DNA of 64,000 nt, from IMG/VR virus record IMGVR_UViG_3300013131_000040, one strand, 5' to 3'. Within the stretch, counting starts at the first letter, position 1. The number at the start of each line of letters is the position of its first letter. The translations under genes were made by a program, and so were the position numbers. Below, piece by piece: positions 2,164 through 55,915 of this stretch. Below the pieces are notes generated by a model. That model was not told where the DNA came from and did not search any database. It was given only the letters and a program-made list of their open reading frames with translations. The stretch comes from an uncultured virus (IMG/VR IMGVR_UViG_3300013131_000040) (Duplodnaviria > Heunggongvirae > Uroviricota > Caudoviricetes).

Positions 2164-3330
2164 ATGGACATCTCGCAGCTCATTGATTTCGATTCGCTCC
2201 TCCCCACCACGCAGGCTCGCCTGCTCACTGGTGACGCTGGCCTCGGTAAGTCCAGCGTGGTGCGAATGATTGCTCAGAAGCGCGGCATGCGGGTCGTTGA
2301 CCTCCGCCTGTCGGAGCTTGAGCCCGCTGATCTTGTCGGTATGCCTTTCGTCGATAAGCTCGCCGACGGCACCGTCGTTACCCGCTACGCTGCTCCGACC
2401 TGGTGGTACGATCTCGAGAACGCTGTTCTCTTCCTCGACGAGATTGACCGTGCTCGTGAGGACATGCAGCCTCTCGCCATGCAGCTGACCCTTGACCGTC
2501 GTGCTGGCGGTCGTACTCTGCCGGATAGCACGATTGTGTTCGCTGCCGGTAACGGTCTGAAGTACCAGACTGCTACGCTCGACCAGGCTCTCTGCAATCG
2601 TTTTGCGATTGTCGAGTTCACTCCCACTTCTTCCGAGTGGGTTAGCTGGGCCAGCGACCCTGCCAATGGCGTTCACCCCGCCGTTGTGCAGTTCATCACG
2701 CAGCACAAGAACCTTCTGGATATTCCCGAGGGTAAGCGTGGTGTTCCGAACGAGGCTGTCACCAGCCGCCGTAGCTGGACCTTCCTCGGTCGTACCCTGA
2801 TGAACCGCGAGGATACTCGTGATTCGCTGTCGGAGGTTGCTGGCCGCGACAACCGCCTGATGGTTTACTCAGCGCCGTTTGTTGGCGAGGTTGCAGCCAA
2901 CACGTTCTCCAGCTGGGTTCGTGATAACTTCAAGCCGCTGGACATCATGGATATCTTCAACGGCAAGCTCAAGAGCCCCAAGGGTTTCCAGCTTACCCAG
3001 GTTATCCAGGCTCTGCGCGATGTCATGGAGGTGATGAACCGCGATGACATCAAGGACGAGCAGCGCATCAACGCCGCCCTGTTCTACAGCCGCATGGGTC
3101 ACGAGCCCTTCTCGGCCTTCTTCGAGGCACTTGATGATCGTCACGGTGACATCATCAACAAGAGCCCTGATCTGAAGGCTGCTGTCCGGGCGCTGCTTGA
3201 TGCGAAGGCTAAGATCTACGCTAAGCCCGCCGCCGATGGTACCACCGCCGCTGCCTCTACCGAGGCGCCAGCCGACTCGGCTGACAGCGACGATGCGCCA
3301 AAGCGTGGTCGCAAGAAGAAGAGTGTCTGA
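2164..3330 (+). CDS. MoxR-type AAA+ ATPase
   Basis: Walker A GDAGLGKS, Walker B LFLDEIDRA, AAGN sensor I, LDQALCNRF arginine finger; AAGGA RBS. Confidence 0.9.
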   Translation: MDISQLIDFDSLLPTTQARLLTGDAGLGKSSVVRMIAQKRGMRVVDLRLSELEPADLVGMPFVDKLADGTVVTRYAAPTWWYDLENAVLFLDEIDRAREDMQPLAMQLTLDRRAGGRTLPDSTIVFAAGNGLKYQTATLDQALCNRFAIVEFTPTSSEWVSWASDPANGVHPAVVQFITQHKNLLDIPEGKRGVPNEAVTSRRSWTFLGRTLMNREDTRDSLSEVAGRDNRLMVYSAPFVGEVAANTFSSWVRDNFKPLDIMDIFNGKLKSPKGFQLTQVIQALRDVMEVMNRDDIKDEQRINAALFYSRMGHEPFSAFFEALDDRHGDIINKSPDLKAAVRALLDAKAKIYAKPAADGTTAAASTEAPADSADSDDAPKRGRKKKSV

Positions 3331-3410
3331 TACAATCGGCGCCAAGACTCAGCTCTTGGCGCCGTTCCTGGTTGGACCAGGCGTTTTGAAACCCAAGCCC
3401 AAGGATATGT

Positions 3411-4577
3411 ATGACCTCTCTCTTGAATCTTAAGTCCCTCTCCACGGGCGAAATCGTGGAGATGACCGATCAGGAGCCATTCATCGCTTACTTCTTCCAC
3501 CAGTCTACGATTATCGAAGACGAGGAGATGAAGTTCGCAGCGGGTGTTTTCGTAAAGCATGGCAAGCCCACGCTGCTTATGAACCCCAAGATGATGAACT
3601 CCTTCTCTGTCCGGGAGAAGATTGGCGTTATCGTGCACGAGTATCTGCACGTTGCGCTTTCGCACTGTACGACGCGACTGACTATGGAGCCAGATCGCCG
3701 CCGCACAGAAAACATTGCTAAGGACATGGCGATCAATCAGCTGATCACCGATCCACAGCATGGCAACTGGGATCTGCCGGAAGGCTGTATCTCGCACACC
3801 GATCCGCGCTTCAACTTCCCTGCCGGCCTTTCTTCGGAAGAGTACTATGCTCTTATGAAGCAAAAGTTCTCCGAGCAGGAGGTTGCTGATCAGTTCGGTG
3901 ACGGCATGGACGACCACAGTGGTTGGTCCGAAGAAGATGACACAACGGGCACGCGAGTCGTCAAGGAAATGGCTCGCCGCTACCTGATGGGTCGCAACGC
4001 TGACCGTGGCCGCACGCTCAAGGCCGGTAGCATGGCCGATTCCATGATTGAAGAAATTCTTTCAGTGGAATCGCATGACATCGACTGGCGCGCCAAGGCC
4101 CGCATGTGGATGGCTCGCATCGCTGATCCTAAGCGCCGCCTTACTTGGAAGCGCTTCAGCAAGCGGTTCGGCTTCCCGTTCCAGGGTGAGAAGACAACCG
4201 TCAAGAATAAGATTCTTGCGATTGTTGACACCTCGGGTTCGATGAGCGATTCGTATCTCGCTCATGTCGGCGGCCAGCTCAATCTCATGACTCGCATCAT
4301 GCAGATTGACGTTGTGTTTTGCGATGCCGACGTGCATGGCAAGATCAAGAAGTTCCGCCCCTCGGCGCAACTTGCTTTCCCCGGTCGTGGCGGCACTGAC
4401 ATGCAGCCCGGCTTTGATCTCGCTGTTGCCGATGGTTATCGTGGTGTTGTGTGCTTTACGGACGGCTATTTGTTCCGCGAACCCGTATGTCCGATCACCA
4501 CCCTGTGGGTCGTGGTCAACAACGATGGTTTCAAGGCTCCGTTCGGCGATGTTGTCAATGTGAAGTGGAAGGACTGA
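3411..4577 (+). CDS. HExxH metallopeptidase-like + vWA domain protein (DUF2201-type)
   Basis: HEYLH and NIAKDMAINQ in the N-half; MIDAS DTSGSMS, GRGGTD and FTDG in the C-half; follows the MoxR ATPase. Confidence 0.85.
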   Translation: MTSLLNLKSLSTGEIVEMTDQEPFIAYFFHQSTIIEDEEMKFAAGVFVKHGKPTLLMNPKMMNSFSVREKIGVIVHEYLHVALSHCTTRLTMEPDRRRTENIAKDMAINQLITDPQHGNWDLPEGCISHTDPRFNFPAGLSSEEYYALMKQKFSEQEVADQFGDGMDDHSGWSEEDDTTGTRVVKEMARRYLMGRNADRGRTLKAGSMADSMIEEILSVESHDIDWRAKARMWMARIADPKRRLTWKRFSKRFGFPFQGEKTTVKNKILAIVDTSGSMSDSYLAHVGGQLNLMTRIMQIDVVFCDADVHGKIKKFRPSAQLAFPGRGGTDMQPGFDLAVADGYRGVVCFTDGYLFREPVCPITTLWVVVNNDGFKAPFGDVVNVKWKD

Positions 4578-4830
4578 TAAGATGACTCTCTATGGTATTA
4601 TTCGTGAAATGCTTGCTCGTGGCGATCTGACTGCCCGTCCTTCTAACCACGTACAAATGGGCGCCGGGGAAACCCTGATTTATCGCGGCGCTCCCGTTCG
4701 TATCTTTACCGAGGTACATTCGCTGCGCGGCCTTGTTCCTCCAGAGAAGGCTGTAGACTTCGAGCGCACAACCGACGTGCTGCTCGATGCAGACTACAAC
4801 CTGATTACGTCGGCACCAAGCTGACGCCCG

Positions 4831-4866
4831 GCAGCCCCGCTGTACCAGCAGCGGGGCTGCTTTTTT
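4831..4866 (+). terminator. Rho-independent terminator
   Basis: Perfect 12-bp stem GCAGCCCCGCTG/CAGCGGGGCTGC followed by T6. Confidence 0.85.
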
Positions 4867-4907
4867 AGTTAGGAGCTTGTTCGCCAGAGCAGATAGCGAG
4901 TAGTTGC

Positions 4908-5201
4908 ATGAAGCTAGACAGCATAGTTTTCTACAAGCTAAAGAGCCTCTCATGGGTTTCACCGTGGACCGAGCACGCCTATATTGTTACTGGTGACGGG
5001 TTGGAGACTACTGCTAGCTTATTTTACGCAAAGAAGCTGCATACCAAGGATAAAGTCTACGGCCAGTATAGTCTAGGCCTGCAATACACTCACGAGCTAT
5101 ACATAATGTCTCCAGGAATATTTTTAAAGTTTCCTGATGACGAAGTCGAGGATGTTATATCTGCTCTGGCGAGGGCGGGCTATTTTCGCGAAGATGGGTA
5201 A
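4908..5201 (+). CDS. MKL-family small protein
   Basis: MKLDSIVFYKLKS. Confidence 0.6.
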   Translation: MKLDSIVFYKLKSLSWVSPWTEHAYIVTGDGLETTASLFYAKKLHTKDKVYGQYSLGLQYTHELYIMSPGIFLKFPDDEVEDVISALARAGYFREDG

Positions 5202-5204
5202 TAG

Positions 5205-5543
5205 ATGAAGCTAGCTGACCAGATCTTTACCGTCCTCGCACCGGCAGAATGGCACACTGCCATTGATCTACCATTCCCGCCTGCCTGGTACGCCATTGCC
5301 GGCCAGCTAGCCTCCAGCGATATAGAAGAGATCGTGTGGCAACGCAATTACATAATCCTGGCCGAATACGTATCAGGTCGTAGCGCCGAGCGACTTGCGG
5401 CATATGGCAACGAAGGTGAGCCTAACCAGTTTTCAATAACATGCGGCGCGCACATAAATGTTGCCGCGCTGCTGGCACCAGTACGAGATAAAGCAAGAGT
5501 GTGGCACTGTGGATGCTTCGCCCGCCTGTCCTATAACCCCTGA
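5205..5543 (+). CDS. MKL-family small protein
   Basis: MKLADQIFTVL; starts 3 nt after the upstream stop. Confidence 0.6.
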   Translation: MKLADQIFTVLAPAEWHTAIDLPFPPAWYAIAGQLASSDIEEIVWQRNYIILAEYVSGRSAERLAAYGNEGEPNQFSITCGAHINVAALLAPVRDKARVWHCGCFARLSYNP

Positions 5544-5556: not shown

Positions 5557-6672
5557 ATGAAGATTTTCGAGAAGTCCAACAACGAGCTGGGCGCGATCTA
5601 TATTGCTTTCGAGTCGCCGGTCAAGAACGAAGATCCGCATCTCAAAGGCATGTCGCACCTGCTCGAGCACATGATTTGCTGCTCACTGGATGACGTTGAA
5701 GAAAAGCTAGATGAGCATTGCCTAACCTACAATGCCTATACCGGCGGTGACGAGGTAGTGTTCTTCCTGTCAGGGCTTAGCAGTGAGCTGGCCAAGTTCC
5801 GCGATCTGTTTGTAGAGCGCATCCTCAGCTATCGACCGACCCTCGAACACTTTAACAAGGAAAAGAATATCGTACTCCAGGAGTATGATGACGCCTATAG
5901 CGAGAGCGGCTTCTCTAGCTTCGCCAACTATTCCAGCGTCCGCTTCGGCTATGTGGGTCCTATCGGCGTCCGGGCTGCTATTGAGTCTGTAACATTTGAG
6001 CAGATTTGTGAGCTGCACGCTCGCGCATTCGCAAAGCCTTCAAAGATTATTGTCATTGACCGTGATGACTTCGATGTGCAGGCCGAGTTTGCTGATACGA
6101 GCGCCGCTACCTATACTGGCTTCCGTCACGTCAACCACGATGCGCCTGTTGTACCTAGCAGCATTAATGTCCTGAGCGCCTCACCCATCCTGCCGCTTGA
6201 TGGGGTTTATCATCTTCAGATTATCCAGGCTACTCTTGGTTATGGTCTAAAGAGTCCGCTGTATCAGGAGCTACGGGAGAAGGCCAGTCTTTGTTACTGG
6301 GTTTCGGCTAGCGCCTACAAGATGAACGACGACCACATCATGGTTGTATCGACATCCACCAAAGACAGCAACGTGGATCGCATCAAGGGCCTTACGCTGG
6401 ATGTGCTCTCTAACCCGGAGAAGCATTTTACCCGCGAGCGGTTTGACATGATGATGGCAAATCGCCGCATTGCAATCCGCATTGCCGAGCAGAACCTGGC
6501 ATCTTCGGGATTCCGCAAGCACCTTAACTCTTCGAACGAGAAGGTGTCCTTCCTCAAGAATATCGACCGGATCACCTACGAGTCGGCTCTCGACTATTTC
6601 AATCGCCACCTGAACCCACGCAATGTGGCATGGGAGCAGGTAGATGACCGCGACATCCGCCAGATGACCTGA
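5557..6672 (+). CDS. M16 (insulinase/pitrilysin-like) zinc peptidase
   Basis: Inverted zinc motif HLLEH, NAYT, EKNIVLQE, and LYQELRE...LCY in the second domain. Confidence 0.88.
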   Translation: MKIFEKSNNELGAIYIAFESPVKNEDPHLKGMSHLLEHMICCSLDDVEEKLDEHCLTYNAYTGGDEVVFFLSGLSSELAKFRDLFVERILSYRPTLEHFNKEKNIVLQEYDDAYSESGFSSFANYSSVRFGYVGPIGVRAAIESVTFEQICELHARAFAKPSKIIVIDRDDFDVQAEFADTSAATYTGFRHVNHDAPVVPSSINVLSASPILPLDGVYHLQIIQATLGYGLKSPLYQELREKASLCYWVSASAYKMNDDHIMVVSTSTKDSNVDRIKGLTLDVLSNPEKHFTRERFDMMMANRRIAIRIAEQNLASSGFRKHLNSSNEKVSFLKNIDRITYESALDYFNRHLNPRNVAWEQVDDRDIRQMT

Positions 6673-7193: not shown

Positions 7194-7535
7194 ATGAAAC
7201 TAGAAACCGCTGCGATGCTAGTAGCTATTGAAGATGGGGAATGGATGACTGCGGCGGGCATAATAGCTCGCCACTTTAATGTAGAGGTAAGCCTGAATGA
7301 ACTTCAGGTTTACAGCCTGACGAGTCTCCAGATTCCCTTTGCGCGGGCAGCGGACTCCCTGCTACTATATCCGATCTACGGTTATAGGTTTGAGTGGCAC
7401 AGCGATACGGGCTTTATAGCATCACTATCCGCTCAGAGGTACTACTCTGATGGAAAGACTAACCCTCGCGCTCAACTGCGTGATCGTCCAGTTCTAGAAG
7501 TTTTCCGGCAGCAAACCCTAACCACAGGAGCCTGA
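7194..7535 (+). CDS. MKL-family small protein (subfamily A)
   Basis: MKLETAAMLVAIEDGEWMTAAGIIARHF. Confidence 0.7.
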   Translation: MKLETAAMLVAIEDGEWMTAAGIIARHFNVEVSLNELQVYSLTSLQIPFARAADSLLLYPIYGYRFEWHSDTGFIASLSAQRYYSDGKTNPRAQLRDRPVLEVFRQQTLTTGA

Positions 7536-8040: not shown

Positions 8041-8304
8041 ATGAAGCTGGCGTCTGTTGCTATCTCAGAAGCGTTCATGGCGGCAGACTACGAGCTAGCC
8101 GTGACTGCCCTTGCGGATCATTATGGACTTGTCCTTCCTGATGGGTACGACCTTGAGGTTATGCTGGATCGCGATCATCATCCCGAAGTAGTAATTGAAA
8201 CCGAATGCATGGTGTATGGCTGGGATAAAATAATTGGTCTTTATTCCGGCAGCATAGTGCCGCGTTACAAGCTACTTGTGACTGTATTTGATTGCAATCG
8301 TTGA
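8041..8304 (+). CDS. MKL-family small protein (subfamily A)
   Basis: MKLASVAISEAFMAADYELAVTALADHYG. Confidence 0.7.
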   Translation: MKLASVAISEAFMAADYELAVTALADHYGLVLPDGYDLEVMLDRDHHPEVVIETECMVYGWDKIIGLYSGSIVPRYKLLVTVFDCNR

Positions 8305-8310: not shown

Positions 8311-8643
8311 ATGAAGCTGCGACAATGGGAGATTGAGCGGCATATAAGTGAGCTGCTTGGCAGAGAGCCCGAGGTTTTCTGGGCAGGGCGCACCAGGGAT
8401 CATGCCCTGCTACTCTGGCCCCACAATGATGGATTTGCCTTTTTGCAGCGTGGCAATGCTGTAGCAGTCTCTGTGCACGGCAGCGTGTCTGGATACTTCG
8501 AGCCATGTCTAACTAAGATTAGCGACGATAGTATAACTGCGGCTGTAAATGTTATTGTTCGCAGCTCCGGCTTGCCATGGAAGCAGGCATCGGCCTGCGA
8601 AGAAATCGCAGATATGTTCAGGGCGGCCAATGAAGCTAGCTAG
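8311..8643 (+). CDS. MKL-family small protein (paralogue of 10562..10867)
   Basis: MKLRQWEIERHISELLG...YFEPCLTKI. Confidence 0.7.
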   Translation: MKLRQWEIERHISELLGREPEVFWAGRTRDHALLLWPHNDGFAFLQRGNAVAVSVHGSVSGYFEPCLTKISDDSITAAVNVIVRSSGLPWKQASACEEIADMFRAANEAS

Positions 8644-8908
8644 CATTGCGATTAAGTTTGCCCTTGGGGAAAAGGACTGGGGAGCAGCTGTTCGGCTGCT
8701 AGCATCCTTATTCCCACTCGAGGGTATTGAGGAAGCCATTAGCATTCATGGCATATCTACGTCAGTAATGCCTGCCTGGGATATGGAAGAGGTGCAGATC
8801 CGCTGGCAATACAATATCTACTACTGGAGGCGAGGGCAGGTGATCTCCGAGCGGTACCCAGTAAACTACCCTACTCCGATGGCTATTGTCTACTGCAAAG
8901 GAATTTGA
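8630..8908 (+). CDS. MKL-family small protein (subfamily A)
   Basis: MKLASIAIKFALGEKDWGAAVRLLASLF. Confidence 0.7.
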   Translation: MKLASIAIKFALGEKDWGAAVRLLASLFPLEGIEEAISIHGISTSVMPAWDMEEVQIRWQYNIYYWRRGQVISERYPVNYPTPMAIVYCKGI

Positions 8909-8909: not shown

Positions 8910-9197
8910 TTGAAGCTCATAGATTACGAGCTTATATTTATGATCGAGCGCGGCGACTGGGATGGTCTGGCTGCTGCCATCGCTAGGCATCACGGCTGCT
9001 CCCTTCAGGCAAAAGCAGAGGTCGCACTCCTAGACAGCGTAGTGGATGACAGCTATGTTTCTCTGCGTATTTGCGACAAGCGCTATACATGGAGCCAGGA
9101 CACTGGCTTCTATTCCTATCGTTATTCAGCCGGGCTAGGCGACGTAGTGCCGCAACTAACCGTTATAAGAAAGCGGGATTATCAGCATGAAAATTAA
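8910..9197 (+). CDS. MKL-family small protein (subfamily A), TTG start
   Basis: TTG AAG CTC 1 nt after the upstream TGA; KLIDYELIFMIERGDWDGLAAAIARHHG. Confidence 0.65.
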   Translation: MKLIDYELIFMIERGDWDGLAAAIARHHGCSLQAKAEVALLDSVVDDSYVSLRICDKRYTWSQDTGFYSYRYSAGLGDVVPQLTVIRKRDYQHEN

Positions 9198-9718: not shown

Positions 9719-10003
9719 ATGAAGCTAGACAACTATGCGATGCGCCTTGCCTTTGCTGAGCGGGATCTGCCTGCTATTAAGGCTGGCGTCGAGCAACACT
9801 TTAACATAAAGCTCCCTAATGTCGAGGCAGAAGTAAGGGATTCATATCCTTATATTGACCAGCTTAGGGTTGACGCAGGGTATAAGTCATATGTGTGGGA
9901 TTCGCGTAATGGCTTTTCTTGCTTTGAAATAATAACGCCTTACACAAAACCTAGCATCACTGTGTGGTGGGCCATGGCAATTAGAGCGCGGGCTCCGGTC
10001 TAA
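9719..10003 (+). CDS. MKL-family small protein (subfamily A)
   Basis: MKLDNYAMRLAFAERDLPAIKAGVEQHF; its stop codon is the TAA of repeat copy 4. Confidence 0.7.
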   Translation: MKLDNYAMRLAFAERDLPAIKAGVEQHFNIKLPNVEAEVRDSYPYIDQLRVDAGYKSYVWDSRNGFSCFEIITPYTKPSITVWWAMAIRARAPV

Positions 10004-10039: not shown

Positions 10040-10297
10040 GTGAAGCTAAATCACTATCTAATGCTAGAGGCTTTCCAGCAGGCCGACACCGACAAAGCCG
10101 TGCAGATCTTTCAAGAGCACTTCGGCCTGAGCATTGTAGACTTGTCAGTAGAAGTTCATCCTACTCATCTTCATGGAGATGCGGTCCACCTTTGGGATGG
10201 GCCAGGATACTATAAATGGACCGCCGAAAGCGGCTTCGGCAAATCTTTTGCCAAGTTTAATCGTCGCACATCTTGCGCCATTACTCTAAGGGTATAG
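10040..10297 (+). CDS. MKL-family small protein (subfamily A)
   Basis: GTG start; KLNHYLMLEAFQQADTDKAVQIFQEHFG. Confidence 0.7.
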   Translation: MKLNHYLMLEAFQQADTDKAVQIFQEHFGLSIVDLSVEVHPTHLHGDAVHLWDGPGYYKWTAESGFGKSFAKFNRRTSCAITLRV

Positions 10298-10298: not shown

Positions 10299-10565
10299 AT
10301 GAAGCTGGATCACTACCAGATGCTAGATGCATTCCAGCGCCGCGACGTGGACGAGATATACAGGTTGTTTAAGGCGCAGTTCGGGATTGACTTTGACACA
10401 GCATCTGCTGAAGTCGTAGTAGACGATCCTTATGCTGGCAATGAGATCGTTATGTACCGATCCAAAGAGTACTACAGTTGGAGCGACGGCGAAGGTTTTT
10501 ATTCCAATACTTTTATAGACACCATTCACCCGGCACTACGGGTAGTGTTTGCGATGAAGCAATGA
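10299..10565 (+). CDS. MKL-family small protein (subfamily A)
   Basis: MKLDHYQMLDAFQRRDVDEIYRLFKAQFG; tandem paralogue of 10040. Confidence 0.7.
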   Translation: MKLDHYQMLDAFQRRDVDEIYRLFKAQFGIDFDTASAEVVVDDPYAGNEIVMYRSKEYYSWSDGEGFYSNTFIDTIHPALRVVFAMKQ

Positions 10566-12100: not shown

Positions 12101-12364
12101 ATGAAGCTGTTGAAGTGGGAAATGGCAGAAGCAATCGCTTGTCGCCACTGGTATGCAGCGGCGGCCATAGCTGCGCGTGAGTTCGGTCTAGCACCGCCAG
12201 CGTCCCTGGTAGTAGCCGACAACGTACTGCACGGTCGGCTGGCGCCAGCTGCCATTAGGATATTTGTCAATGGTATGTGCTACATGATGGCGCTGCCTGA
12301 CTGCAATTCATATATTAGCTCAACTGTAAGTCCAAATAATACTGCAACAATTACTTCATGGTAG
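12101..12364 (+). CDS. MKL-family small protein (subfamily A)
   Basis: MKLLKWEMAEAIACRHWYAAAAIAAREFG. Confidence 0.7.
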   Translation: MKLLKWEMAEAIACRHWYAAAAIAAREFGLAPPASLVVADNVLHGRLAPAAIRIFVNGMCYMMALPDCNSYISSTVSPNNTATITSW

Positions 12365-12698: not shown

Positions 12699-12932
12699 AT
12701 GAAGCTTATCAAGGCCTATGAATTCCGTGACCGATGGGGAACGTGCGTCCTGCGACTGCCCTATCCTCAAGATATGGCTATTCTCGGGATAGTGCTGGCG
12801 CAGCACAACTACAGGTTCCGAAAAAATCGGGAGCCTGTCAGCATTTATGCCATCAGCGTGCTAGGCGATTCAGAGCAGATAGATGTGCCTGACGATCCTG
12901 AGAACGACTATACTTTTGGCAACAAACAGTAA
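12699..12932 (+). CDS. MKL-family small protein
   Basis: TAAGGA RBS; MKLIKAYEFRD. Confidence 0.55.
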   Translation: MKLIKAYEFRDRWGTCVLRLPYPQDMAILGIVLAQHNYRFRKNREPVSIYAISVLGDSEQIDVPDDPENDYTFGNKQ

Positions 12933-12950: not shown

Positions 12951-13295
12951 ATGAAGTTAGAAAATGCGGAGATATTACTTCGCTATCCTATTCCTGCTGG
13001 TGCTGGATTCAGTGCTTACCGCAACGGCAGTCGCATAGTGGTATCTTTTAATATACCTGGCAGCGGAAAGCTCAGGCTAGCCCTTGATCCTGACAGCCTA
13101 GACATTTGTAGCTGGGTTTCTTCACTAGGCGGCAATTACTTATTCAGCCCAGGATCTATTCCGGTTGACGATGCTACAATTGATCTTCTTACTCGAGGCG
13201 TCATGCCAGGGTCGTCTGATCCCAGTATGACTGGTGCTTTGCTAAAAGAAATTCGATTACTGCAAACGGACAAAAATGAAGACACTGATTCTTGA
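12951..13295 (+). CDS. MKL-family small protein
   Basis: ATG AAG TTA; MKLENAEILLRY. Confidence 0.6.
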   Translation: MKLENAEILLRYPIPAGAGFSAYRNGSRIVVSFNIPGSGKLRLALDPDSLDICSWVSSLGGNYLFSPGSIPVDDATIDLLTRGVMPGSSDPSMTGALLKEIRLLQTDKNEDTDS

Positions 13296-14898: not shown

Positions 14899-15258
14899 AT
14901 GAAGCTAGACGAAGAATGTATTCGTCAAATGTACCGTGGCTCATCAGTTGATCTGTCACGAGCGGCAGCCGATGTGCTTGCCCTGTGCGACGAAGTGGCA
15001 CGCCTGAAATCCTGCAACAAGGAAATCTTAGACGATCTACTCCGCTGTCAGAAGCGGCTGGATGCGGCAAGCAGTTATGCCGAAGGCTGCGCCAAGCAGG
15101 CCGGAGACCTTGCAGAAGGCGTACTTAATGCACTAGGTATCAAGTGGAGCACTGTCTGCCCTGATGATGCAACTATTATCCAGCATGTGCGCGATCTGCG
15201 CGCCAAGTGCGAACAGCTAGAAATTCAATTCGAATATCTTGAAGGACCAGGAGAATAG
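14899..15258 (+). CDS. MKL-start coiled-coil protein
   Basis: MKLDEECIRQMY; AAGGA RBS. Confidence 0.6.
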   Translation: MKLDEECIRQMYRGSSVDLSRAAADVLALCDEVARLKSCNKEILDDLLRCQKRLDAASSYAEGCAKQAGDLAEGVLNALGIKWSTVCPDDATIIQHVRDLRAKCEQLEIQFEYLEGPGE

Positions 15259-18339: not shown

Positions 18340-18879
18340 ATGTCGCCTGGGCTGGAAGAAAAACTATATCGTGATCACCCGCGCATCTTTCGCAGGGGTA
18401 ATGACTTTATTGGCATCAGCTGCGGCGATGGCTGGTACAACATCATTGACGTTCTCTGTACCAATATTCAACATCATATCAGTGGCTCGCGAAGCATCCG
18501 TGCTCGAGACCTGCGGTATAATCGCGCCTTGCGAGCAGGCATCTCCGGTAATAAACGGCCGCTAGAAAAGCATTTTAATTGGGGCGTGCCGACTTTCAAG
18601 GTCAGCCCTAAAGTAGCCGACCGCGTAGATGAAGTAATTGCCAAGGCTGCTTTTCTTACGCCCCATGAGCCTATATATCAGGTACAGTGTACCCAGGTAA
18701 AAGAAAAGTTCGGCGTACTGTGCTTTTACTATGTAGGAGGCGACAGATATATCGACGGTCTTGTGCGCATGGCAGAGGGCGTCTCCCGCCATGTCTGTGA
18801 AAAGTGTGGCGGGCGAGCGGACGCCGAAGTCAATTCTGGATGGATCAAATCGCTTTGCGTCGGCTGTGCAGGCAAATGA
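18340..18879 (+). CDS. Conserved phage protein with C-terminal zinc ribbon
   Basis: CGDGW, QVKEKFG.L.FY, CEKCG...LCVGC. Confidence 0.7.
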   Translation: MSPGLEEKLYRDHPRIFRRGNDFIGISCGDGWYNIIDVLCTNIQHHISGSRSIRARDLRYNRALRAGISGNKRPLEKHFNWGVPTFKVSPKVADRVDEVIAKAAFLTPHEPIYQVQCTQVKEKFGVLCFYYVGGDRYIDGLVRMAEGVSRHVCEKCGGRADAEVNSGWIKSLCVGCAGK

Positions 18880-19262
18880 AATTAGCAAATGTCTGGTGGG
18901 CCGGTAGCGATGAGTATATCCGCGCATCAATTGCAGATTATGGTTTGCCGGTTCCTAAGGAAATATGCGGGGTGCCATTTAACATGCTGCTGCAACTCGC
19001 TCGCGAGGACAGCCTGCTGATAGAGTGGGTGTCGCGGCGCGCCTTCATGATATACAGGCTTGGTGTTTCAGAAGATGGTATTTCTGCTATGGGTGGCGAT
19101 ACCGAGTGGGATGCACCTAGTTTGTTAGGTGCCATTTATCTTAATTTTAATATGCCTGCGAGCGCAGGGGCTCTAGAGGCAATAGCTGCGGCAGAGGCCG
19201 CTGGTTTTGCAAGAAGCTCGCTCTCAAGCGGCTATTGTGTATACAAGAATCACTTAACCTAG
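18876..19262 (+). CDS. MKL-family small protein
   Basis: ATG AAA TTA in an ATGA overlap; MKLANVWW. Confidence 0.6.
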   Translation: MKLANVWWAGSDEYIRASIADYGLPVPKEICGVPFNMLLQLAREDSLLIEWVSRRAFMIYRLGVSEDGISAMGGDTEWDAPSLLGAIYLNFNMPASAGALEAIAAAEAAGFARSSLSSGYCVYKNHLT

Positions 19263-20347: not shown

Positions 20348-20608
20348 ATGAAACTCCATGACTGGGCTTTGCAATCTGCTGCCGCCTCGCGCGATTGGCG
20401 CGAGGTAGTACGAATAGTTTCGCGAGAAATTGGGATTGAGCCACCTGAGAGGATAACTGCTAATCCAGAGATAAGTAGCGATTGGTTGTGCATCTCAATA
20501 GTCAAAGGTCATGAGTCATGGAATTATTGGTGCGATGGAGTATGGAACCATCGCTCCCACCCACCAGCCGGGTATCCTCCTGGTAACTACGCATTTGTTG
20601 TGAGGTAG
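20348..20608 (+). CDS. MKL-family small protein (subfamily A)
   Basis: MKLHDWALQSAAASRDWREVVRIVSREIG. Confidence 0.7.
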   Translation: MKLHDWALQSAAASRDWREVVRIVSREIGIEPPERITANPEISSDWLCISIVKGHESWNYWCDGVWNHRSHPPAGYPPGNYAFVVR

Positions 20609-25628: not shown

Positions 25629-25841
25629 ATGAAGCTTGCCTCTTTAGAGATAATGTTCTGCAAAGATGCATATGATCTGCTCCTGTGGTTTAAGAAAGTA
25701 AGAAATCTAAATATTCCATCCAGAGAAGATTTTCAGGTTCTCATGGACACGGAAGAAGTCCAAACACTAGGTGTCTGGTTTGATCATGTTGGGCTCGTGT
25801 CGATATTAAAGATCAACCGAGGTGGGCTTAGCGCATCCTAG
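25629..25841 (+). CDS. MKL-family small protein
   Basis: MKLASLEIMF. Confidence 0.55.
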   Translation: MKLASLEIMFCKDAYDLLLWFKKVRNLNIPSREDFQVLMDTEEVQTLGVWFDHVGLVSILKINRGGLSAS

Positions 25842-38196: not shown

Positions 38197-38652
38197 ATGA
38201 AGCTTGAAAAAGCAAGAACCATTCTAGATGTTCAGGACTTGACCGTATTTAACAGGCAGAAATTAAAGAGGTATGCAGATACATTCAACTGCTGTCTAGA
38301 CTGGATCTGTATAAATCCACCCGGGACATGTGCAGTAGATCTGCGCTATAGCGAAGGCAGTGCCTCAGACAAAGTAGACGTAAGATTTTTTACGCTCAAT
38401 TCCAAGGGACAATGTCCGCTGGTACCCAGCTACGCCCAGACCTACAAGCTGTCTGCAAACCACCGCGGCGAAGATATTTATTTTGCGCCTGGTCGTATGT
38501 GGGTAGAAGGGGGCACGGATTGGCATCTAAGCATTGACTGGCAAGCTCTCCGTCCCGGAAGCCCGCCCATTGTTGCTTTGGAGCAGGTAGTCAATCTAGG
38601 CGAATTTGGACTTGAGTTAACCGACAAGTTTTATATTACGGAGCGGAAATGA
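38197..38652 (+). CDS. MKL-family small protein
   Basis: MKLEKARTILD; 11-nt overlap with the upstream gene. Confidence 0.6.
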   Translation: MKLEKARTILDVQDLTVFNRQKLKRYADTFNCCLDWICINPPGTCAVDLRYSEGSASDKVDVRFFTLNSKGQCPLVPSYAQTYKLSANHRGEDIYFAPGRMWVEGGTDWHLSIDWQALRPGSPPIVALEQVVNLGEFGLELTDKFYITERK

Positions 38653-39843: not shown

Positions 39844-40413
39844 ATGCTCGATTTCGTCAAGAGATTGCATTGGCAGTATTCATCTGCCGGTATGCCTCCC
39901 AAGGTGAGGCTCCGCACAGCCTACCATGAAGCTGGCCACGCCTACTTCATGTCTAAGTCTCAGCTCTGGAAAAACATCAATATCAGGCTCAACGCCACTG
40001 GCGGCCTTGCTCACTCGGAGTACGGCAATCGTTCTGCATTCTCAGACGCAGAAGCTGGCTGGCTGATTCTCCGCATGGTTCTGGCGGGAGCCGTAGCAGA
40101 ACAATACTTTTTCGGCGCATACTCTAAGTACGGCACATGGGCAGATGTTTCTAATGGCATCGAGCTTGTTACCGGCAGAGAAGCCCCGATGATGGCATAT
40201 GTAGACAACGAATTGCTTTCTTATAAGCTCAGCTCTGTTCAGAGGATGCTGCCGCCAAGCGTCAACGATAATACCCGAAAGGTGATTGCATCAGCAGTTG
40301 ACTCTGCTATCCACTGTATCCACCGGGACCACGCCAAGGTACGGGAACTAGGCAAGGCGCTGTATCGCAAGTCGTACTTAAACGACAGGGAAATCAGAAA
40401 GATTCTGGAATGA
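39844..40413 (+). CDS. Stand-alone FtsH/M41-like zinc peptidase domain
   Basis: TAYHEAGHA, LAGAVAEQYFFG, G...D; no AAA or TM domain. Confidence 0.75.
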   Translation: MLDFVKRLHWQYSSAGMPPKVRLRTAYHEAGHAYFMSKSQLWKNINIRLNATGGLAHSEYGNRSAFSDAEAGWLILRMVLAGAVAEQYFFGAYSKYGTWADVSNGIELVTGREAPMMAYVDNELLSYKLSSVQRMLPPSVNDNTRKVIASAVDSAIHCIHRDHAKVRELGKALYRKSYLNDREIRKILE

Positions 40414-40960: not shown

Positions 40961-42304
40961 ATGAAAATGACAACGTTTGATCTCCGCAGCGACACCACTC
41001 ATCACCGCGTTTTCATCAGGATTGGTGCTGACGCAGTCAATGGCGCTATGGAAGAAGCCGCTCGCGGACTTCAAGCTGTCATGGCTCTACCGCCTCACCC
41101 AAAAGGTCAGGTTCCTCTTGACCTCATTATGAAGCGGTTTGGTTCTCAGTTCCGCTCCGGTGTAACCGAGAAGCTGATCATGAAGGCTACCGGTGAGGCC
41201 ATCTATTCTCTCGGTCTGCGTACAGGTGCAGACCCACAGCTAGATGAGGCATATCGCGTGCGCCCAGACAAGAAGTGGCTTGGGGTGTTCGCAGAGGATG
41301 GCTGTCTTGAATTCAGTGTTTCGTGGCCCCGCCCAGCAACGGTCGAACTAAAGGATTACTTTGGCATTACTGTAGAGGTCGACGAAGGCGACCGTGACGC
41401 GGCGATTGCAAATCAGCTGCGAGTGCTTCAGCTTAAGACTTCGTCAAACAAGCCTGTTGAGCGGGAGGTCACTCCAGAGGATGTGGTTGTTGTTGATCTT
41501 GTTGGCAGTGACAGCGATGGCAATGAGATCCACGGTGCCCGGTTTAATGACCTTGTATTCCGGCCCAAGATGAAAGGCGGTCGCCAAATTAGCGACAAGC
41601 TCAACCAGGTTGTTATTGGTGCCAAGGCCGGCGACCAGGTAACTTTCGAAGAGACCTATGATGACAAGCATCACGACCGCTATCTCCGTGGGCAAAAAGT
41701 AAACTTTACCTGCACGGTCAAGGAAGTATGCGAGTCTGTTGTGCCGGATATTGATGAGGAGTTTGCCAAGACTGCTGGTTACGACAGCCTCGATGCACTG
41801 AGGGAAAAGATCGGCCAAGAGTGGGATCGTGGTAATGCTGCAAATGTAAGGCAGCAAAAGCGCATCCAGGTACGCAAGGGGGTTGTTGCCGCTAACCCTC
41901 TGCCCGTAGACGAGGCCGAGCTGCTGCGCTTCTGCGAGTCTGCTGCCCAGCAGTTTGGCGTCAAGTATAGTGATCTGCTGCTTCAGCCCGAGACGGCAAA
42001 GCTGGCAGAATCCATCCGGGAAGAGCAGAAGGAGGTCCTTGTCTATAACGACATCCTTGATCGCGTATTTGATCTTCACGCCGGAGAGCTGCTTCTAAAA
42101 GAAGAAGATATTCTTAAGTATGCAGCCGCCGATGCTCAGCCGGGCGTAGCACCCGAGGAGGAGTTGCAAGCCAAGAAGAGCAAGCCTGCTGTGTATGCTG
42201 CATGGCTACAGCGCAGTCAGCGGCAGAAGGTTGCAGACTGGCTATGTGATTCCGCTGTAATCGTTAAGCGCGCTGCCGCAGAAGAAACAAGCAGCGCAGA
42301 GTGA
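40961..42304 (+). CDS. tig: Trigger factor (divergent)
   Basis: N-domain KGQVP...KRFG, P..VELKDY.GI, FKBP-like region, PDIDEEFAK..GYDSL..LR, helical C-domain; 447 aa. Confidence 0.82.
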   Translation: MKMTTFDLRSDTTHHRVFIRIGADAVNGAMEEAARGLQAVMALPPHPKGQVPLDLIMKRFGSQFRSGVTEKLIMKATGEAIYSLGLRTGADPQLDEAYRVRPDKKWLGVFAEDGCLEFSVSWPRPATVELKDYFGITVEVDEGDRDAAIANQLRVLQLKTSSNKPVEREVTPEDVVVVDLVGSDSDGNEIHGARFNDLVFRPKMKGGRQISDKLNQVVIGAKAGDQVTFEETYDDKHHDRYLRGQKVNFTCTVKEVCESVVPDIDEEFAKTAGYDSLDALREKIGQEWDRGNAANVRQQKRIQVRKGVVAANPLPVDEAELLRFCESAAQQFGVKYSDLLLQPETAKLAESIREEQKEVLVYNDILDRVFDLHAGELLLKEEDILKYAAADAQPGVAPEEELQAKKSKPAVYAAWLQRSQRQKVADWLCDSAVIVKRAAAEETSSAE

Positions 42305-43864: not shown

Positions 43865-45139
43865 ATGCTTACCGAGAAACTGCTAGATGATTGGATTCGG
43901 ACATCGCAGAATGTCCTCCTTGTCGGCCCTCATGGGATTGGCAAGACCGAGCAAGTGCTGGCTGCCATGAAGCGCAATGGCATTAAGTATGCCTACTTCT
44001 CAGCATCAACCATGGACCCGTTCGTAGATTTTGTAGGCGTTCCTAGGGTAGTTGAAGACGAGAACGGTCGCTGGCTTGACTTTATCAAGCCCAAGGTATT
44101 CGCCAACAACGACATCCAGGTTATCGTTGTAGACGAGTTCAATCGTGCTCCAAAGAAGGTGCGCAATGCCCTGATGGAAGCGATCCAGTTCAAGTCGATC
44201 AATGGCGTGCCAATGCCCAATCTCAAGATGATCTGGGCGATGGTCAATCCTCACGATGAGGAGGATACCTATGATGTTGACCGGCTTGATCCCGCTCAAG
44301 AAGATCGCTTTCAGATCAAGGTTGTCCTACCCAACGGCCCTTCCCTTAAATATTTCAAGGATACCTATGGCGTACTGGGCGAGATTGCTCACCGCTGGTG
44401 GGGCAAGATTGACGAGAAGCTGCGAAAGAAAAGCGTTGTTTCGCCCCGCCGTCTAGAGTATGCAATCCAGGCCTACCAAGCTGGTCTTGACATTGACTAC
44501 GTACTGCCCAAGGAAGTTAACGTAAAAGATCTAAAAGCCGAGCTTAACAAGTCTGGGCTAATGAGCCGGCTTCCACAGCTCCGCAAGCTGGACGTGAATG
44601 GCCTGCGCAAAGAGATCCAGGGCAACGGGAATCTGCGGGATCTTGTCATGGGCGAGATCCTAGAGGGCAAGTTCCCCGTGGCAATGATCGAAGCCATGAC
44701 CGACGAGGAGATCGTAAACAAGTGCAGTGTGGCTAGCGTTCGTGGTTTTATTGTCGAGCGTATCATGACTGGCGATTCCCGATTCACATCACTAGCTGCG
44801 GAGATTTCAAAGAGTCCGCCTTCCAAGACCGCTGACAAGGGCGTGGCAGATTCGATTAAGGCATTCGCCTCGGCAATCGAGAAGGCTAAGAAAGAAGCGC
44901 AGAAAAAGATTACTGCCAAGGCCAGACAGGATGGCGTAAACAGCGAAACCCTGAAGCGCCAGCTAGGCGTGCTTTTTCAGCCTACGCTCGGTCGCGAGGA
45001 GTTGCAGGAACTGCTAAAGACCAATCGCAAGGCCATCTCTGCTGACGAAGTAATGCGTCAGCTTATTGTCAAGGCAACGCAGATTGCGATTAATCGAGAG
45101 CTGATCTCCGAGGTTGCCCGCGAGCTAAAGATTATCTGA
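43865..45139 (+). CDS. MoxR-type AAA+ ATPase (second copy)
   Basis: GPHGIGKT, VVDEFNRA, AMVNP, LDPAQEDRF, SPRR. Confidence 0.9.
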   Translation: MLTEKLLDDWIRTSQNVLLVGPHGIGKTEQVLAAMKRNGIKYAYFSASTMDPFVDFVGVPRVVEDENGRWLDFIKPKVFANNDIQVIVVDEFNRAPKKVRNALMEAIQFKSINGVPMPNLKMIWAMVNPHDEEDTYDVDRLDPAQEDRFQIKVVLPNGPSLKYFKDTYGVLGEIAHRWWGKIDEKLRKKSVVSPRRLEYAIQAYQAGLDIDYVLPKEVNVKDLKAELNKSGLMSRLPQLRKLDVNGLRKEIQGNGNLRDLVMGEILEGKFPVAMIEAMTDEEIVNKCSVASVRGFIVERIMTGDSRFTSLAAEISKSPPSKTADKGVADSIKAFASAIEKAKKEAQKKITAKARQDGVNSETLKRQLGVLFQPTLGREELQELLKTNRKAISADEVMRQLIVKATQIAINRELISEVARELKII

Positions 45140-45149: not shown

Positions 45150-46478
45150 ATGTCGACTGAGTGCCTATCAGATGACGAGTGGTCGAGTCTAGCAAAACAG
45201 CTAGAGGACTACCACTCGGTTTTTTCTAAATTCTGGTCGATGGGAAAGCCGACTGTAACGCGGGAGATCCCGACGTGCGCCGTAGCCTTTGACAAGGCCG
45301 GACAGCAGATCATGTGGTCAGTCAATCCAGATTTCTGGGGCACCCTGTCAGAAAAGGGCAAGCTTTTTGCCATTGCCCACGAGTGTATGCACGTCATCTT
45401 TAGTCACGGCATTCGCTCTACTGAGCTGCTTAAGACTGTAGATCCAGGCACACTGAATGCTGCGATGGATATTGCGGTCAACTCGCATCTTGAAAGCCAC
45501 TATGGTTTTCGTCGTGACGAGGTTGAGCCAGATGGCGTGCGGTATATCTGGCTAGATGAAGTCCTGCCTGGCGAGCCAGCTGGTAAAAGTTTTGAATATT
45601 ATGCCAACGCTCTGCTGAGTAAAAATCCCGAGGCAAAGCTAAAGAACAAGGCTAGCCCTAACCGGGAATCTGGCGAAGGAGGTGGCAGGCCACAAACCGT
45701 AGATGATCACAGGGATCTCGCAGGATTCGGCGGGGGTGATCTGGCCGACATGCTTAAGCGCACACTTGACTCTGGCAATACGGAAGAACTGGCTGAAATG
45801 GCCGGATCTGACGCAACTCCAGAGATGGAGAAGAGTGCAGCTGCCGCAGCCAAGGGGCTGCGTGCTGGTAAGCATCCGGGTGATACGGTTCTCGAGATTG
45901 CATCTGCGAAATGGATTCGACCTAAACCCCGTTGGGAAAGCGTAGTCAAGAAATGGGCACTGCGTGCCGCAGATGAGTTTGCAGAAGCCCCTGTTTGGAC
46001 ACAGCAGAGCCGCCGAATTGATCCGTCAATGATGGGCGATTGTATGCTACCTGCGCTCGGCGAGAGCGAGGGCGACGAGAAAAAGCGGATTAGAGTTTCA
46101 TTCTTTCTTGATACAAGTGGCAGCTGCATTAGCTATGCAGAGCGGTTTTTCAAGGCTGCACGCACACTTGACCCACGCCGGTTTGATGTCAAGCTGTACT
46201 GCTTTGATACCCGCGTATATGAGACAGATCTAAAAACTGCAAAAGTTTACGGGGGAGGAGGAACCAGCTTTAGCATTATCGAGCGACGTATTCAGGCAGA
46301 GATGGCCGAGAAAGACTCCGCTTACCCGCACGCGGTATGGGTGTTGAGTGACGGCTATGGCAACGATGTGCATCCAGAAAAGCCAAAACGCTGGCACTGG
46401 TTCCTGACAGCGGGCGGCTCTAGGGATTATGGTATCCCTGCCGATTCGCATGTACACAAGCTTTCTGATTTCGAGTGA
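45150..46478 (+). CDS. HExxH metallopeptidase-like + vWA protein (second copy)
   Basis: HECMH, NAAMDIAVN, DTSGS, GGGGT, LSDG. Confidence 0.85.
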   Translation: MSTECLSDDEWSSLAKQLEDYHSVFSKFWSMGKPTVTREIPTCAVAFDKAGQQIMWSVNPDFWGTLSEKGKLFAIAHECMHVIFSHGIRSTELLKTVDPGTLNAAMDIAVNSHLESHYGFRRDEVEPDGVRYIWLDEVLPGEPAGKSFEYYANALLSKNPEAKLKNKASPNRESGEGGGRPQTVDDHRDLAGFGGGDLADMLKRTLDSGNTEELAEMAGSDATPEMEKSAAAAAKGLRAGKHPGDTVLEIASAKWIRPKPRWESVVKKWALRAADEFAEAPVWTQQSRRIDPSMMGDCMLPALGESEGDEKKRIRVSFFLDTSGSCISYAERFFKAARTLDPRRFDVKLYCFDTRVYETDLKTAKVYGGGGTSFSIIERRIQAEMAEKDSAYPHAVWVLSDGYGNDVHPEKPKRWHWFLTAGGSRDYGIPADSHVHKLSDFE

Positions 46479-49308: not shown

Positions 49309-49638
49309 ATGAAGCTCTGGTTAGCAGAGCTGATACTGTCTGTATCTGAAGAGTACGGTATATCACCGACATCATGCGGCAGCTCTCCAGTTGGCGAGTC
49401 AGTTATTCAGTGGCCTGCTGGCCCCGACCGGCTGGCCGCTGCCTACTATCCAGATTTTAATCTCCTGAGAAAATGGAATAAGGATCCAAGCGATTATGGC
49501 TATGTGCAGCACTTGTTCTATTCCGATGGTCGGGTAGGGCAAATAACAACAGTTTCCGCCGGTTGGGTAAATGAAGAATGGTTTGACCCCGCCGGTAATT
49601 CAATCACTTACGAACGATTCGTTTCGATTTATTTTTGA
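49309..49638 (+). CDS. MKL-family small protein
   Basis: MKLWLAELILS; starts 1 nt after the upstream stop. Confidence 0.6.
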   Translation: MKLWLAELILSVSEEYGISPTSCGSSPVGESVIQWPAGPDRLAAAYYPDFNLLRKWNKDPSDYGYVQHLFYSDGRVGQITTVSAGWVNEEWFDPAGNSITYERFVSIYF

Positions 49639-53098: not shown

Positions 53099-53425
53099 AT
53101 GAAACTACATGAAATGCACCTGATAAACAGCCTACTTGAAAATCAGGACATGGAAAATCATATTAGTTCTGAAAAGCTAAATGGCCAGCGGGTCCATGTG
53201 CTGTCAGGGCCAGGCAAGATGATTATCATCACAAAGCATCCACACCATTTTGATATATCTATGAAGTTCGATGGGCGACCAGTAAGAGCTGAACTAGATC
53301 TAAATCTAAATATCGTTTCTATTGACTCTGGCAGGTGGTCTCTTAGTGATGAAGATGTGATAAATAAAAGGAATTTCGAGGCAAGGTTTGCAACAATTCT
53401 GCCCAAAGGACTAGGATCAGCCTGA
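53099..53425 (+). CDS. MKL-family small protein
   Basis: ATG AAA CTA directly after TGA; MKLHEMHLINS. Confidence 0.6.
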   Translation: MKLHEMHLINSLLENQDMENHISSEKLNGQRVHVLSGPGKMIIITKHPHHFDISMKFDGRPVRAELDLNLNIVSIDSGRWSLSDEDVINKRNFEARFATILPKGLGSA

Positions 53426-54891: not shown

Positions 54892-55251
54892 ATGACACAG
54901 TTTGATGGTAACTATGATCGTGACAAGCTTGCTACCGTAGAGGACATCGTTGCCCTTACCGGCAAGCCAGTTCTCCTTGTGAACAAGGCTCTTAAGGACG
55001 CTGGTCTTGTATCAGCTGGCCATGTGCGTACTGGTCGGGTTGGCAAGCCGCCCCGTCTTTTTGACCGCGCAGAATTCCTTGCTGCTATCGCGGCCTACGA
55101 GGATCGGCGCAATACTCTGCGAGCTGCTCGTGCATCAGCCCGCACTCGTTCAGTTACTGCTGCTCCGGTAGTTGTAACAACTGTACCGCCGCCTGCCAAT
55201 GATGATGAGGCCGCTCAGGCATCACCGGCTGCGGTTGTTTTTGGTGATTGA
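54892..55251 (+). CDS. Putative HTH DNA-binding protein
   Basis: TVEDIVALTG...VNKAL and GRVGKPPRLF wing-like motif. Confidence 0.45.
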   Translation: MTQFDGNYDRDKLATVEDIVALTGKPVLLVNKALKDAGLVSAGHVRTGRVGKPPRLFDRAEFLAAIAAYEDRRNTLRAARASARTRSVTAAPVVVTTVPPPANDDEAAQASPAAVVFGD

Positions 55252-55522
55252 GGGCATTAGCCCATTTGAAAGGAAATAAGCATGGAACTGTCTAAAAAGA
55301 ATCTTCTTGTTGCTGCCGGTGTCGTTGTTGCAGCTGTCGTCGGCGTTACTCTCTTTAACGTTGTGCAGGATCTTGGCTCTGATCCCGTAGTTGTAGAGGA
55401 GGATGTCGCTGGCGACGCTCCTGCTACTGAGCCTGCTGCCGAGGCTGCTGCTGGGACTGCCGGTGAAGGCGAGGGCGAGACTGCTGCCGGGACTGATGCT
55501 GGCGTCGCTGAGTGAGGCCGGC

Positions 55523-55555
55523 GGAGCCCTGTAGTTTTTTTTACAGGGCTCCTTT
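55523..55555 (+). terminator. Hairpin/terminator
   Basis: GGAGCCCTGTA/TACAGGGCTCC 11-bp stem followed by TTT. Confidence 0.6.
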
Positions 55556-55615
55556 ACCGATAAAAACTCGGGAATATAATCCTCCTAGCAGCAGGCAGCT
55601 GCACTAGGAGGATTT

Positions 55616-55915
55616 ATGTTTGACTTTGTTTCTGGTTTTGACAACAACTATCTCGTAGAAAACATCGACGGCACCACTGTTATAAGCATCCCGCTGCCGG
55701 GTGTCACAAAAGAAGATCTAGAAATAGAGGCCGGTCCAGCATCCCTGGATATTCGGGTGACGGCAAATAGGAAGTTCCCATTTCTAAGCAAGCGCAAGTG
55801 GCGCTTTACGCACCGCCTTGGCAACCCCGAAGTTTCTGCCAAGGTAGAAAATGGCGTGCTGGTACTTAAGCTAAGCGAAACTTCGCGGTCAAAATACCGT
55901 ATTGAAGTCGCATGA
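55616..55915 (+). CDS. Small heat-shock protein (Hsp20)
   Basis: LPGVTKEDLEI, SAKVENGVL.L; AGGAGG RBS. Confidence 0.85.
   Translation: MFDFVSGFDNNYLVENIDGTTVISIPLPGVTKEDLEIEAGPASLDIRVTANRKFPFLSKRKWRFTHRLGNPEVSAKVENGVLVLKLSETSRSKYRIEVA

Follow-up and report, generated by a model that had tools for sequence, protein, structure and literature searches.

Introduction

Jumbo phages are known to carry chaperones and protease adaptors of their own. The available text of Iyer et al., 2021 (PMC7824862) describes a kit of ClpS, ClpP, Hsp20, Hsp10/Hsp60, DnaJ, BCS1 and a MoxR AAA+ ATPase paired with a metallopeptidase-vWA protein, and proposes roles in virion assembly and, for ClpS, in recruiting targets to the ClpAP of the host; for huge phages, PMC7162821 describes a deformylase. 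Here, we consider a stretch of 64,000 nucleotides (the window) of the uncultured Caudoviricetes record IMGVR_UViG_3300013131_000040, in which genes of this kind lie among a large set of small genes whose products begin Met-Lys-Leu (MKL). The window phage shares with the kit of Iyer et al. its components, its MoxR plus peptidase-vWA architecture and the roles that can be proposed for it; to these the window phage and its complete relative, G003, add a second MoxR-vWA pair, an adjacent M16 peptidase, a stand-alone M41 peptidase domain, Lon and two trigger factors. The main text of that paper contains none of the terms trigger, Lon, M16, FtsH or deformylase, although its supplements, and those of PMC7162821, may list trigger factor, Lon or M16. 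The kit itself is mostly known and extends the jumbo-phage theme. New, so far as our searches reach, are a duplicated phage trigger factor, of which one copy is canonical and the other has a docking loop whose alteration is fixed, a block of MoxR, vWA and M16 genes that recurs, and the presence of one N-terminal motif on about one-fifth of the genes of a 372-kb phage.

The MKL proteins also have described counterparts. The T4 internal proteins Ip1-3, as presented in the part of PMC12373910 that was available, are likewise unrelated small variable proteins that share only an N-terminal signal. The MKL set differs in comprising about 10 times more genes, in its motif and in a leader that, by prediction, belongs to the folded body. 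The zinc ribbon expansion of Bacillus phage G, of about 35 copies according to the available text of PMC7824862, is comparable to the approximately 40 copies of one MKL family (family A) in G003, but about two-thirds of the MKL proteins fall outside family A, so that the shared feature is a tag and not one paralogue family.

An initial annotation of the window had proposed that the phage remodels host protein quality control, and that removal of Met-Lys exposes the Leu of MKL proteins to ClpS. We propose instead that kit and tag are separate: the kit would serve the phage's own proteins, and the MKL start would be a docking or sorting tag that is not cut. We put the probability of this reading as a whole at roughly 55%. 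If the MKL start is indeed a docking tag, it would give one handle on a large share of the jumbo-phage genes whose function is unknown.

Results

The window is the 5' portion of a 73-kb viral contig on which nearly all genes share one orientation. Its complete relative G003 (371,675 bp, direct terminal repeats, 84% identity), located through gyrase B, is mostly syntenic with it, and the source of the window is a jumbo phage of about 370 kb. Among named phages, Bacillus phage G has the nearest major capsid protein (45%), while terminase and capsid tie the window phage to more distant relatives of 266-335 kb, G010-G013 (capsid 54-60%), two of which, G010 and G011, are 100% and 94% complete. Genes were called with a simple custom caller, so that some starts are uncertain and a few MKL starts will be due to chance; Pfam scans of G003 omitted or only partly covered 13 open reading frames (ORFs) that span 20-kb borders. 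Each gene that the initial annotation had named has a syntenic orthologue in G003, lies on the + strand and keeps its catalytic or binding motifs; the match of the Hsp20 gene is weak.

The MKL repertoire reported in that annotation is real. With a caller that prefers MKL starts, 35/133 ORFs of the window and 111/513 of G003 begin in this way; a caller blind to MKL gave 24/147 for the contig of the window and 68/501 for G003, against 16/1453 in G010-G013 (p 4e-16 and 2e-27, respectively). G010 has 6 MKL starts in 371 genes and G011 one in 352. The proteins are 55-203 amino acids long, use ATG, GTG and TTG starts and, in G003, are encoded mainly in the first 120 kb and in a patch at 335-340 kb. 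The 147 MKL proteins of the contig and G003 fall into 60 clusters with at least two predicted folds, and a profile of family A matches 53 of them. That all belong to one family could be ruled out, as 94/147 have no match to this profile.

What is conserved is the protein start. Of the 36 MKL proteins of the contig, 24 have a reciprocal best match in G003, and 22 of these matches also start MKL. Within these 22 pairs the codons have diverged, for Lys in 8 pairs, for Leu in 14 and for the start in 6, and yet residues 2-3 are identical in 21/21 pairs that align in register, compared with 50% and 28% in 18 controls of similar divergence. Residue 4 agrees in only 24% of the in-register pairs, and the median whole-protein identity to G003 is 35% for MKL orthologues against 59% for other genes. 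M-K-L is conserved at the level of protein, not of DNA. A DNA-level signal was considered as a candidate and rejected, given synonymous codon variation and no enriched upstream k-mer beyond a lack of Shine-Dalgarno (SD) sites. A set of 200 homologous segments comprises 185 with an MKL start (147 of them the queries themselves), seven with MKI, three with MKS (one core-region family) and one each with MKF, MKM and another start; two lack a start.

The pattern extends beyond the first three residues. In 59 representatives of clusters outside family A, residues 4-12 outscore control N-termini on the family A matrix (p 1e-7); the controls include some mis-called starts, but windows taken from within the same proteins are equally low in score. 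A hydrophobic residue stands at positions 6 and 8 in 46/59 representatives, compared with 167 and 172 of 349 controls. An extended motif, M-K-L-x-x-hydrophobic-x-hydrophobic, therefore spans unrelated bodies. Structure models, which cover two families, place it in a helix: that of a family A protein (9719..10003, +) has pLDDT 92.8, a helix at residues 2-13 and a fold of two helices and a sheet, and that of a family with HRxDGP repeats has a different fold and a helix at residues 3-14 (pLDDT 88.3). On these models MKL reads as a portable N-terminal helix. The HRxDGP body starts MKL in 12/13 proteins of G003 and MEK in 19/20 proteins of G012, where nineteen such MEK-start genes with conserved upstream sequence lie at 27358-107491, an independent expansion of the repeat body. 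No membrane segment was found in 145/147 MKL proteins.

Searches for MKL proteins elsewhere returned little. The family A profile matched nothing in G004 or G010-G013, and a DNA pattern scan of viral contigs for this family gave 26 loci, six of them in G003; of the other 20 only L146 had an array. The family A fold had no BFVD match at E<=0.001 and a best Z of 2.9 against 48,161 chains, values that show neither novelty nor difference, and the ESM Atlas gave no usable feature match. A literature search for the MKL motif in phages found nothing relevant. The same phage has other recurrent N-termini: L-x-x-x-A-N-E-L-D-x-x-G-x-x-x-x-A-D stands on unrelated bodies at 13982-14788 (+), 21433-21717 (-) and 47210-47800 (+) of the window and at 14625, 24783, 25286, 61508, 77052 and 100746 of G003, and F-x-L-F-K-x-A starts were seen on further genes. 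Both are possible leaders of head proteins.

Turning to the kit, the window encodes two MoxR-vWA pairs. The first consists of a MoxR-type AAA+ ATPase (2164..3330, +; Pfam AAA_5; PHROG 1297, E 2e-56; GDAGLGKS and VLFLDE; 92% identical to G003) and an HExxH metallopeptidase-vWA partner (3411..4577, +; DUF2201_N and DUF2201; HEYLH, DTSGS and TDG; 98%), the second of an ATPase with Pfam and PHROG matches and the corresponding motifs (43865..45139, +; 81%) and its partner (45150..46478, +; HECMH, DTSGS and SDG; 73%). Walker A/B, HExxH and MIDAS motifs are intact in both, and each has the adjacent AAA+ and HExxH-MIDAS genes that define a MoxR-vWA (DUF2201) pair. The first ATPase matches 759 phage records, N4 included. 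Close to the first pair lies a single-chain M16B-like peptidase (5557..6672, +; Pfam M16 and M16_C above cut-off; HLLEH; 86% to G003), of which there is one gene per genome. Its catalytic residues H34, E37, H38 and E102/E109 are unchanged in 4/4 copies, its best solved relatives are 3eoq and 3hdi, and all four solved matches are bacterial M16 proteins, none of them MPP. MoxR, vWA-peptidase and M16 are three contiguous genes in G010 and G011, both without an MKL expansion; in the window the first vWA gene and M16 are separated by three small genes, of which two are MKL. DNA identity to G003 is 83% across the first pair (1945-4809) and 78% across M16 (5548-6672), as against 64-76% in most blocks (protein 86-98%), which may reflect recent exchange or unusually strong constraint.

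The ClpS adaptor (24150..24455, +; Pfam ClpS E 4e-29; 56% to G003) passes the Pfam cut-off and misses the NCBIfam equivalog cut-off (best 103.9 bits against 112). Its N-degron pocket, N34/D35/D36/H66 in E. coli numbering, corresponds in a gapless alignment to N28, D29, D30 and H60 and is invariant in 4/4 copies. We take Met40 of E. coli to be the gatekeeper and Met62 to form the pocket wall; the gatekeeper position is M34 in the window and Tyr in G003, and the Met62 position is Thr in the ClpS of the window, G003 and L299. Also present are D73/E76/K78, presumably the residues that contact ClpA. The N-terminal extension of about 19 residues has an intact Pro-Pro junction, P18-P19, of the kind defined in the available part of PMC9663308. 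The phage ClpS appears competent to partner the ClpA of the host. The protein matches 20 phage records and occurs in PA5oct, Atu_ph07 and CBB. Among eight phage records searched, several of which are fragments, none had a member of the ClpA/B/X families or an L/F-transferase.

A trigger factor paralogue, TF1 (40961..42304, +; 68% to G003), matches TIGR00115 over positions 3-409 of 410, with 160 bits against a cut-off of 180, and is homologous to trigger factor over the full length of three domains; it also matches E. coli trigger factor (E 2e-21) and the PPIase-domain chain 1l1p (E 4e-8). While it matches bacterial trigger factor (TIGR00115; E. coli 1w26) along all three domains, it differs from it by a PHPKG loop in place of GFRxG. 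Indeed, the ribosome-docking motif GFRxGxxP is replaced by P-H-P-K-G-x-V-P in 12/12 copies of the clade, with loop variants PPHPKG and PQHPKG. A second trigger factor in G003, TF2, retains a canonical PGFRPG. Both contain a KWLG insertion, and this shared insertion therefore points to a duplication within the phage lineage. The GFRxG motif mediates ribosome binding, which the FRK/AAA change compromises in E. coli (PMC11725819, in the part available), and we infer that TF1 would not dock on L23 in the usual way, but would act off the ribosome or dock differently. That this trigger factor engages nascent chains, as the initial annotation had taken for granted, is doubtful for TF1 given its loop. 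Canonical trigger factors that keep GFRxG lie near DnaE in G012 and G013, which have no MKL expansion. PHROG 26774 already contains trigger factor-like phage proteins without a name, and among the literature matches listed no title or abstract concerned a phage-encoded trigger factor.

The remaining kit members in the window are less securely assigned. A stand-alone M41-like zinc peptidase domain (39844..40413, +; Pfam E 2e-6; HEAGH; 52% to G003) scores 28 bits against a Pfam cut-off of 29.9, although HEAGH and D101 are invariant in 11/11 aligned copies. This ORF of 189 amino acids matches only positions 413-597 of TIGR01241, the AAA+ domain and membrane anchor of FtsH being absent. A small heat-shock-like protein (55616..55915, +; NCBIfam Hsp20 E 1e-6; 60% to G003) is a weak match, at 20.0 bits against a Pfam cut-off of 20.8 and with solved small heat-shock proteins only at E of about 0.1. 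The description of the set as unusually large nevertheless understated it, for G003 additionally encodes Lon, ClpP, GroEL, GroES, peptide deformylase, TF2, a trypsin-like peptidase, a further AAA+ ATPase and a DnaJ-like protein which, in the gene call used, has only the central and C-terminal domains. In a tree of 32/80 loci, the phage Lon pairs with Myxococcales Lon (100/100) and other Myxococcota Lons are placed elsewhere, a hint from one protein of a Myxococcota host. A Lon 73% identical to that of the phage lies on a 119-kb contig in an archaeon-titled bin (L047, handle G005), probably a mis-binned phage contig of the window clade.

The proteostasis genes are dispersed, over 54 kb in the window and from 43 kb to 331 kb in G003, and do not form one module. 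Their median distance to MKL genes, 1174 bp, exceeds that of other genes, which is 111 bp. Among the relatives without an MKL expansion, G010 and G011 carry Hsp20 and two GroEL genes, and G012 and G013 carry ClpP and a DnaJ-like gene.

Discussion

Based on these observations, we propose that the scattered and mostly older chaperone and peptidase genes would fold and process the large protein output of the phage itself. GroEL/GroES, TF2, deformylase, the DnaJ-like protein and Hsp20 would provide the folding side. MoxR-vWA and M16 may act as a unit that unfolds and cuts phage proteins, ClpS would deliver N-degron substrates to host ClpAP, no ClpA or ClpX having been found in the phage, and TF1 may be a ribosome-independent holdase beside the canonical TF2. 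The MKL start, predicted to form a conserved N-terminal helix, would, uncut, mark small and rapidly evolving proteins for docking or sorting; these are likely to be early host-interaction proteins, and the intact helix would bind one common partner. Of the broader idea that the phage intervenes in proteostasis, the large kit and a ClpS apt for host ClpA stand; the removal of Met-Lys and the reading of Leu by ClpS are not supported.

Several observations weigh against such a separation of kit and tag. ClpS was found in the MKL lineage alone (five outgroup records searched, only two of them at least 90% complete), TF1, M41, Lon and GroES were also found only there, and two MoxR-vWA pairs per genome are again confined to this lineage. 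This restriction fits a functional link to MKL. In addition, the window M16 shares no more than about 20% identity with the M16 of G010 and G011 (for G011, from a truncated row) and is nearer (29-33%) to that of uncultured phages of 635-735 kb (five records), with no MoxR/vWA match in three flanks (10 kb each side) of the latter genes. Because of these identities and flanks, the MoxR-vWA-M16 triad may not be strictly orthologous between lineages. On the other hand, G010-G013 lack gyrase and IF1 as well, and because all MKL-rich sequences found form one lineage, co-occurrence cannot show a link between MKL and the kit. No MKL-rich relative lacking the kit genes was encountered, G003 and L299 both keeping ClpS, but with a single lineage this speaks only weakly for a link. 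Judged by gene content, most of the kit predates the tag, because representatives of MoxR-vWA-M16, Hsp20, trigger factor, ClpP and GroEL exist among the relatives that have no MKL expansion.

The most explicit alternative is that of the initial annotation, namely that a peptidase (M16, M41 or vWA-HExxH) removes Met-Lys, and that the phage ClpS brings the Leu-exposed MKL proteins, together with bound host targets, to host ClpAP. It can draw on the intact ClpS pocket (N28, D29, D30, M34 and H60) and Pro-Pro junction, on the restriction of ClpS and M41 to the MKL lineage, on Leu3 being identical in 21/21 orthologue pairs and on four HExxH/HxxEH peptidases within the window. While the phage ClpS keeps the pocket and junction of the N-degron pathway, the MKL proteins do not have the traits expected of a good substrate. 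According to the available text of PMC12258705, acidic residues at P2-P5 and Ala after Leu stabilise in E. coli, Gln destabilises, and Met-Lys starts are in bulk no degrons. Of the 147 proteins, 76 have D, E or A next to Leu (D/E in 61, A in 15) and five have Q (among the cluster representatives, D/E in 19/59 and A in 7/59), and the four residues after Leu have a mean charge of about -0.7, with an acidic residue among them in 101/147, where the D/E background is 9-12%. Furthermore, an N-degron requires an unstructured region (10.1101/2021.07.26.453911, in the part available), whereas both modelled MKL families are predicted to be helical from residue 2-3. Deviant homologues read MKI seven times and MKF once. 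Ile is not known as a primary residue for ClpS, and a position read by ClpS would be expected to drift to F/Y/W. The ClpS gatekeeper changes from Met to Tyr in G003 with no alteration of MKL, and M16 is older than the MKL expansion, as its presence beside MoxR-vWA in relatives without the expansion indicates. M16 enzymes are moreover endo- or oligopeptidases and are not known as dipeptidyl peptidases. Although the specificity of host or phage ClpS may differ from that of E. coli, we consider this model very improbable and reject it on the residues after Leu, the predicted helix, the drift to MKI and the occurrence of M16 in non-MKL relatives; these features steer work away from Met-Lys cleavage. 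An intact MKL helix might instead be read by a lineage-specific kit member (TF1, ClpS, Lon or MoxR2-vWA2), the small proteins then forming an F-box-like library of adaptors or timed effectors. We regard this as possible, if unlikely; if true, it would mean that host proteins are held, remodelled or destroyed through a repertoire comparable to viral F-box proteins. Kit factors and tag appear within the same lineage, the tag is portable across folds while the bodies evolve fast, and the loop change of TF1 is fixed in 12/12 copies. There is also a precedent in N-motif 2 of OmpA, by analogy with which the MKL start could be a degron while uncleaved, as Met-basic-hydrophobic N-termini can be for ClpX (PMC12723719, in the part available). 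However, co-occurrence in a single lineage has no statistical weight, the kit genes do not adjoin the MKL arrays, position 4 is often acidic, unlike in the OmpA degron, and no ClpX or ClpA was found in the phage.

Two further explanations dispense with the kit. One dispenses with any partner as well: MKL would be an efficient translation start, or a 5' end spread by duplication or recombination, kept because ribosome-binding sites are weak. In G003, SD-like sites precede 33/111 MKL genes compared with 203/402 others (p 1e-4), 4-base stop/start overlaps are found in 32/101 MKL genes and 50/352 others, and the Leu codons favour A-ending forms (p 3e-4). Yet the difference in SD sites is not significant in the contig of the window (p 0.12) or when genes are split by overlap (p 0.11 and 0.12), no upstream DNA k-mer is enriched beyond the SD deficit, the genes draw on all six Leu codons and on three different start codons, and the conserved pattern extends to residues 8-12, which leaves this explanation a rather low probability. 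We find it improbable too that MKL is a capsid-packaging leader, as in the T4 internal proteins, and that the proteins are injected anti-defence factors. As with Ip1-3 (PMC12373910, in the part available), small bodies that are otherwise unrelated have nothing but an N-terminal leader in common, and 145/147 lack a membrane segment, but there are more than 100 MKL genes compared with about 10 internal proteins reported, they cluster near the terminal repeat and not near the head genes, and the F-x-L-F-K-x-A and A-N-E-L-D motifs look, in our reading, more like leaders of head proteins. We therefore favour a kit acting on the phage's own proteins beside a separate, uncut MKL tag.

Additional features of the window

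The MKL genes of the window lie on the + strand except where stated. Besides the modelled protein at 9719..10003, family A comprises 337..633 (GTG start), 1096..1389, 1632..1940, 7194..7535, 8041..8304, 8630..8908, 8910..9197 (TTG start), 10040..10297 (GTG start), 10299..10565, 12101..12364, 20348..20608 and the short 30088..30255, which has 97 amino acids in L301. Of the MKL genes outside family A, 4908..5201 lies between the first vWA gene and M16, 5205..5543 stands directly before M16 and has an orthologue in G003 that is also MKL, and 8311..8643 has a paralogue at 10562 that starts MKI. The start of 14899..15258 is possibly due to chance, its G003 orthologue not being MKL, and the protein at 21760..22131 has one HRxDGP repeat. 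The others are 12699..12932, 12951..13295, 18876..19262, 25629..25841, 26522..26968, 26965..27276, 30736..31131 (TTG start), 31305..31643 (GTG start), 31815..32135, 33038..33490, 34755..35189, 38197..38652, 49309..49638, 53099..53425, 56851..57246, 57217..57654 (- strand, GTG start, start uncertain) and 63031..63450.

Among the neighbouring genes, an IscA/ErpA-like Fe-S assembly protein (10979-11350) is 88% identical to G003 and is also present in G010 and G011. RNA and DNA repair genes at 16382-18338, 53459-53998, 55925-56854 and 28090-28776 encode a SpoU methylase, an RNA ligase, a 2H phosphoesterase, UvdE and an 8-oxoguanine glycosylase. A lipoprotein-like protein (36070-37260) has Cys-rich repeats with a weak Cu-binding_MopE match, a type of repeat that we take to be common in myxobacteria, and its C-terminal part is vWA-like. 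Past the window, on the same contig (G000, 69211-69459), lies a gene that reads as IF1-like, with 79-81% conservation across G001-G003 and no counterpart found in G010-G013. In G003, a tubulin/FtsZ-family GTPase (317857-319203) is conserved in G010-G013 (34-37%). Finally, short non-coding repeats, possibly promoters or terminators, occur at 39775-39842 and about 30625-30695 (an 82% match over 71 bp) and also at 46479-46600 and 52529-52560; two of these sites translate to an identical short Pro-rich string.

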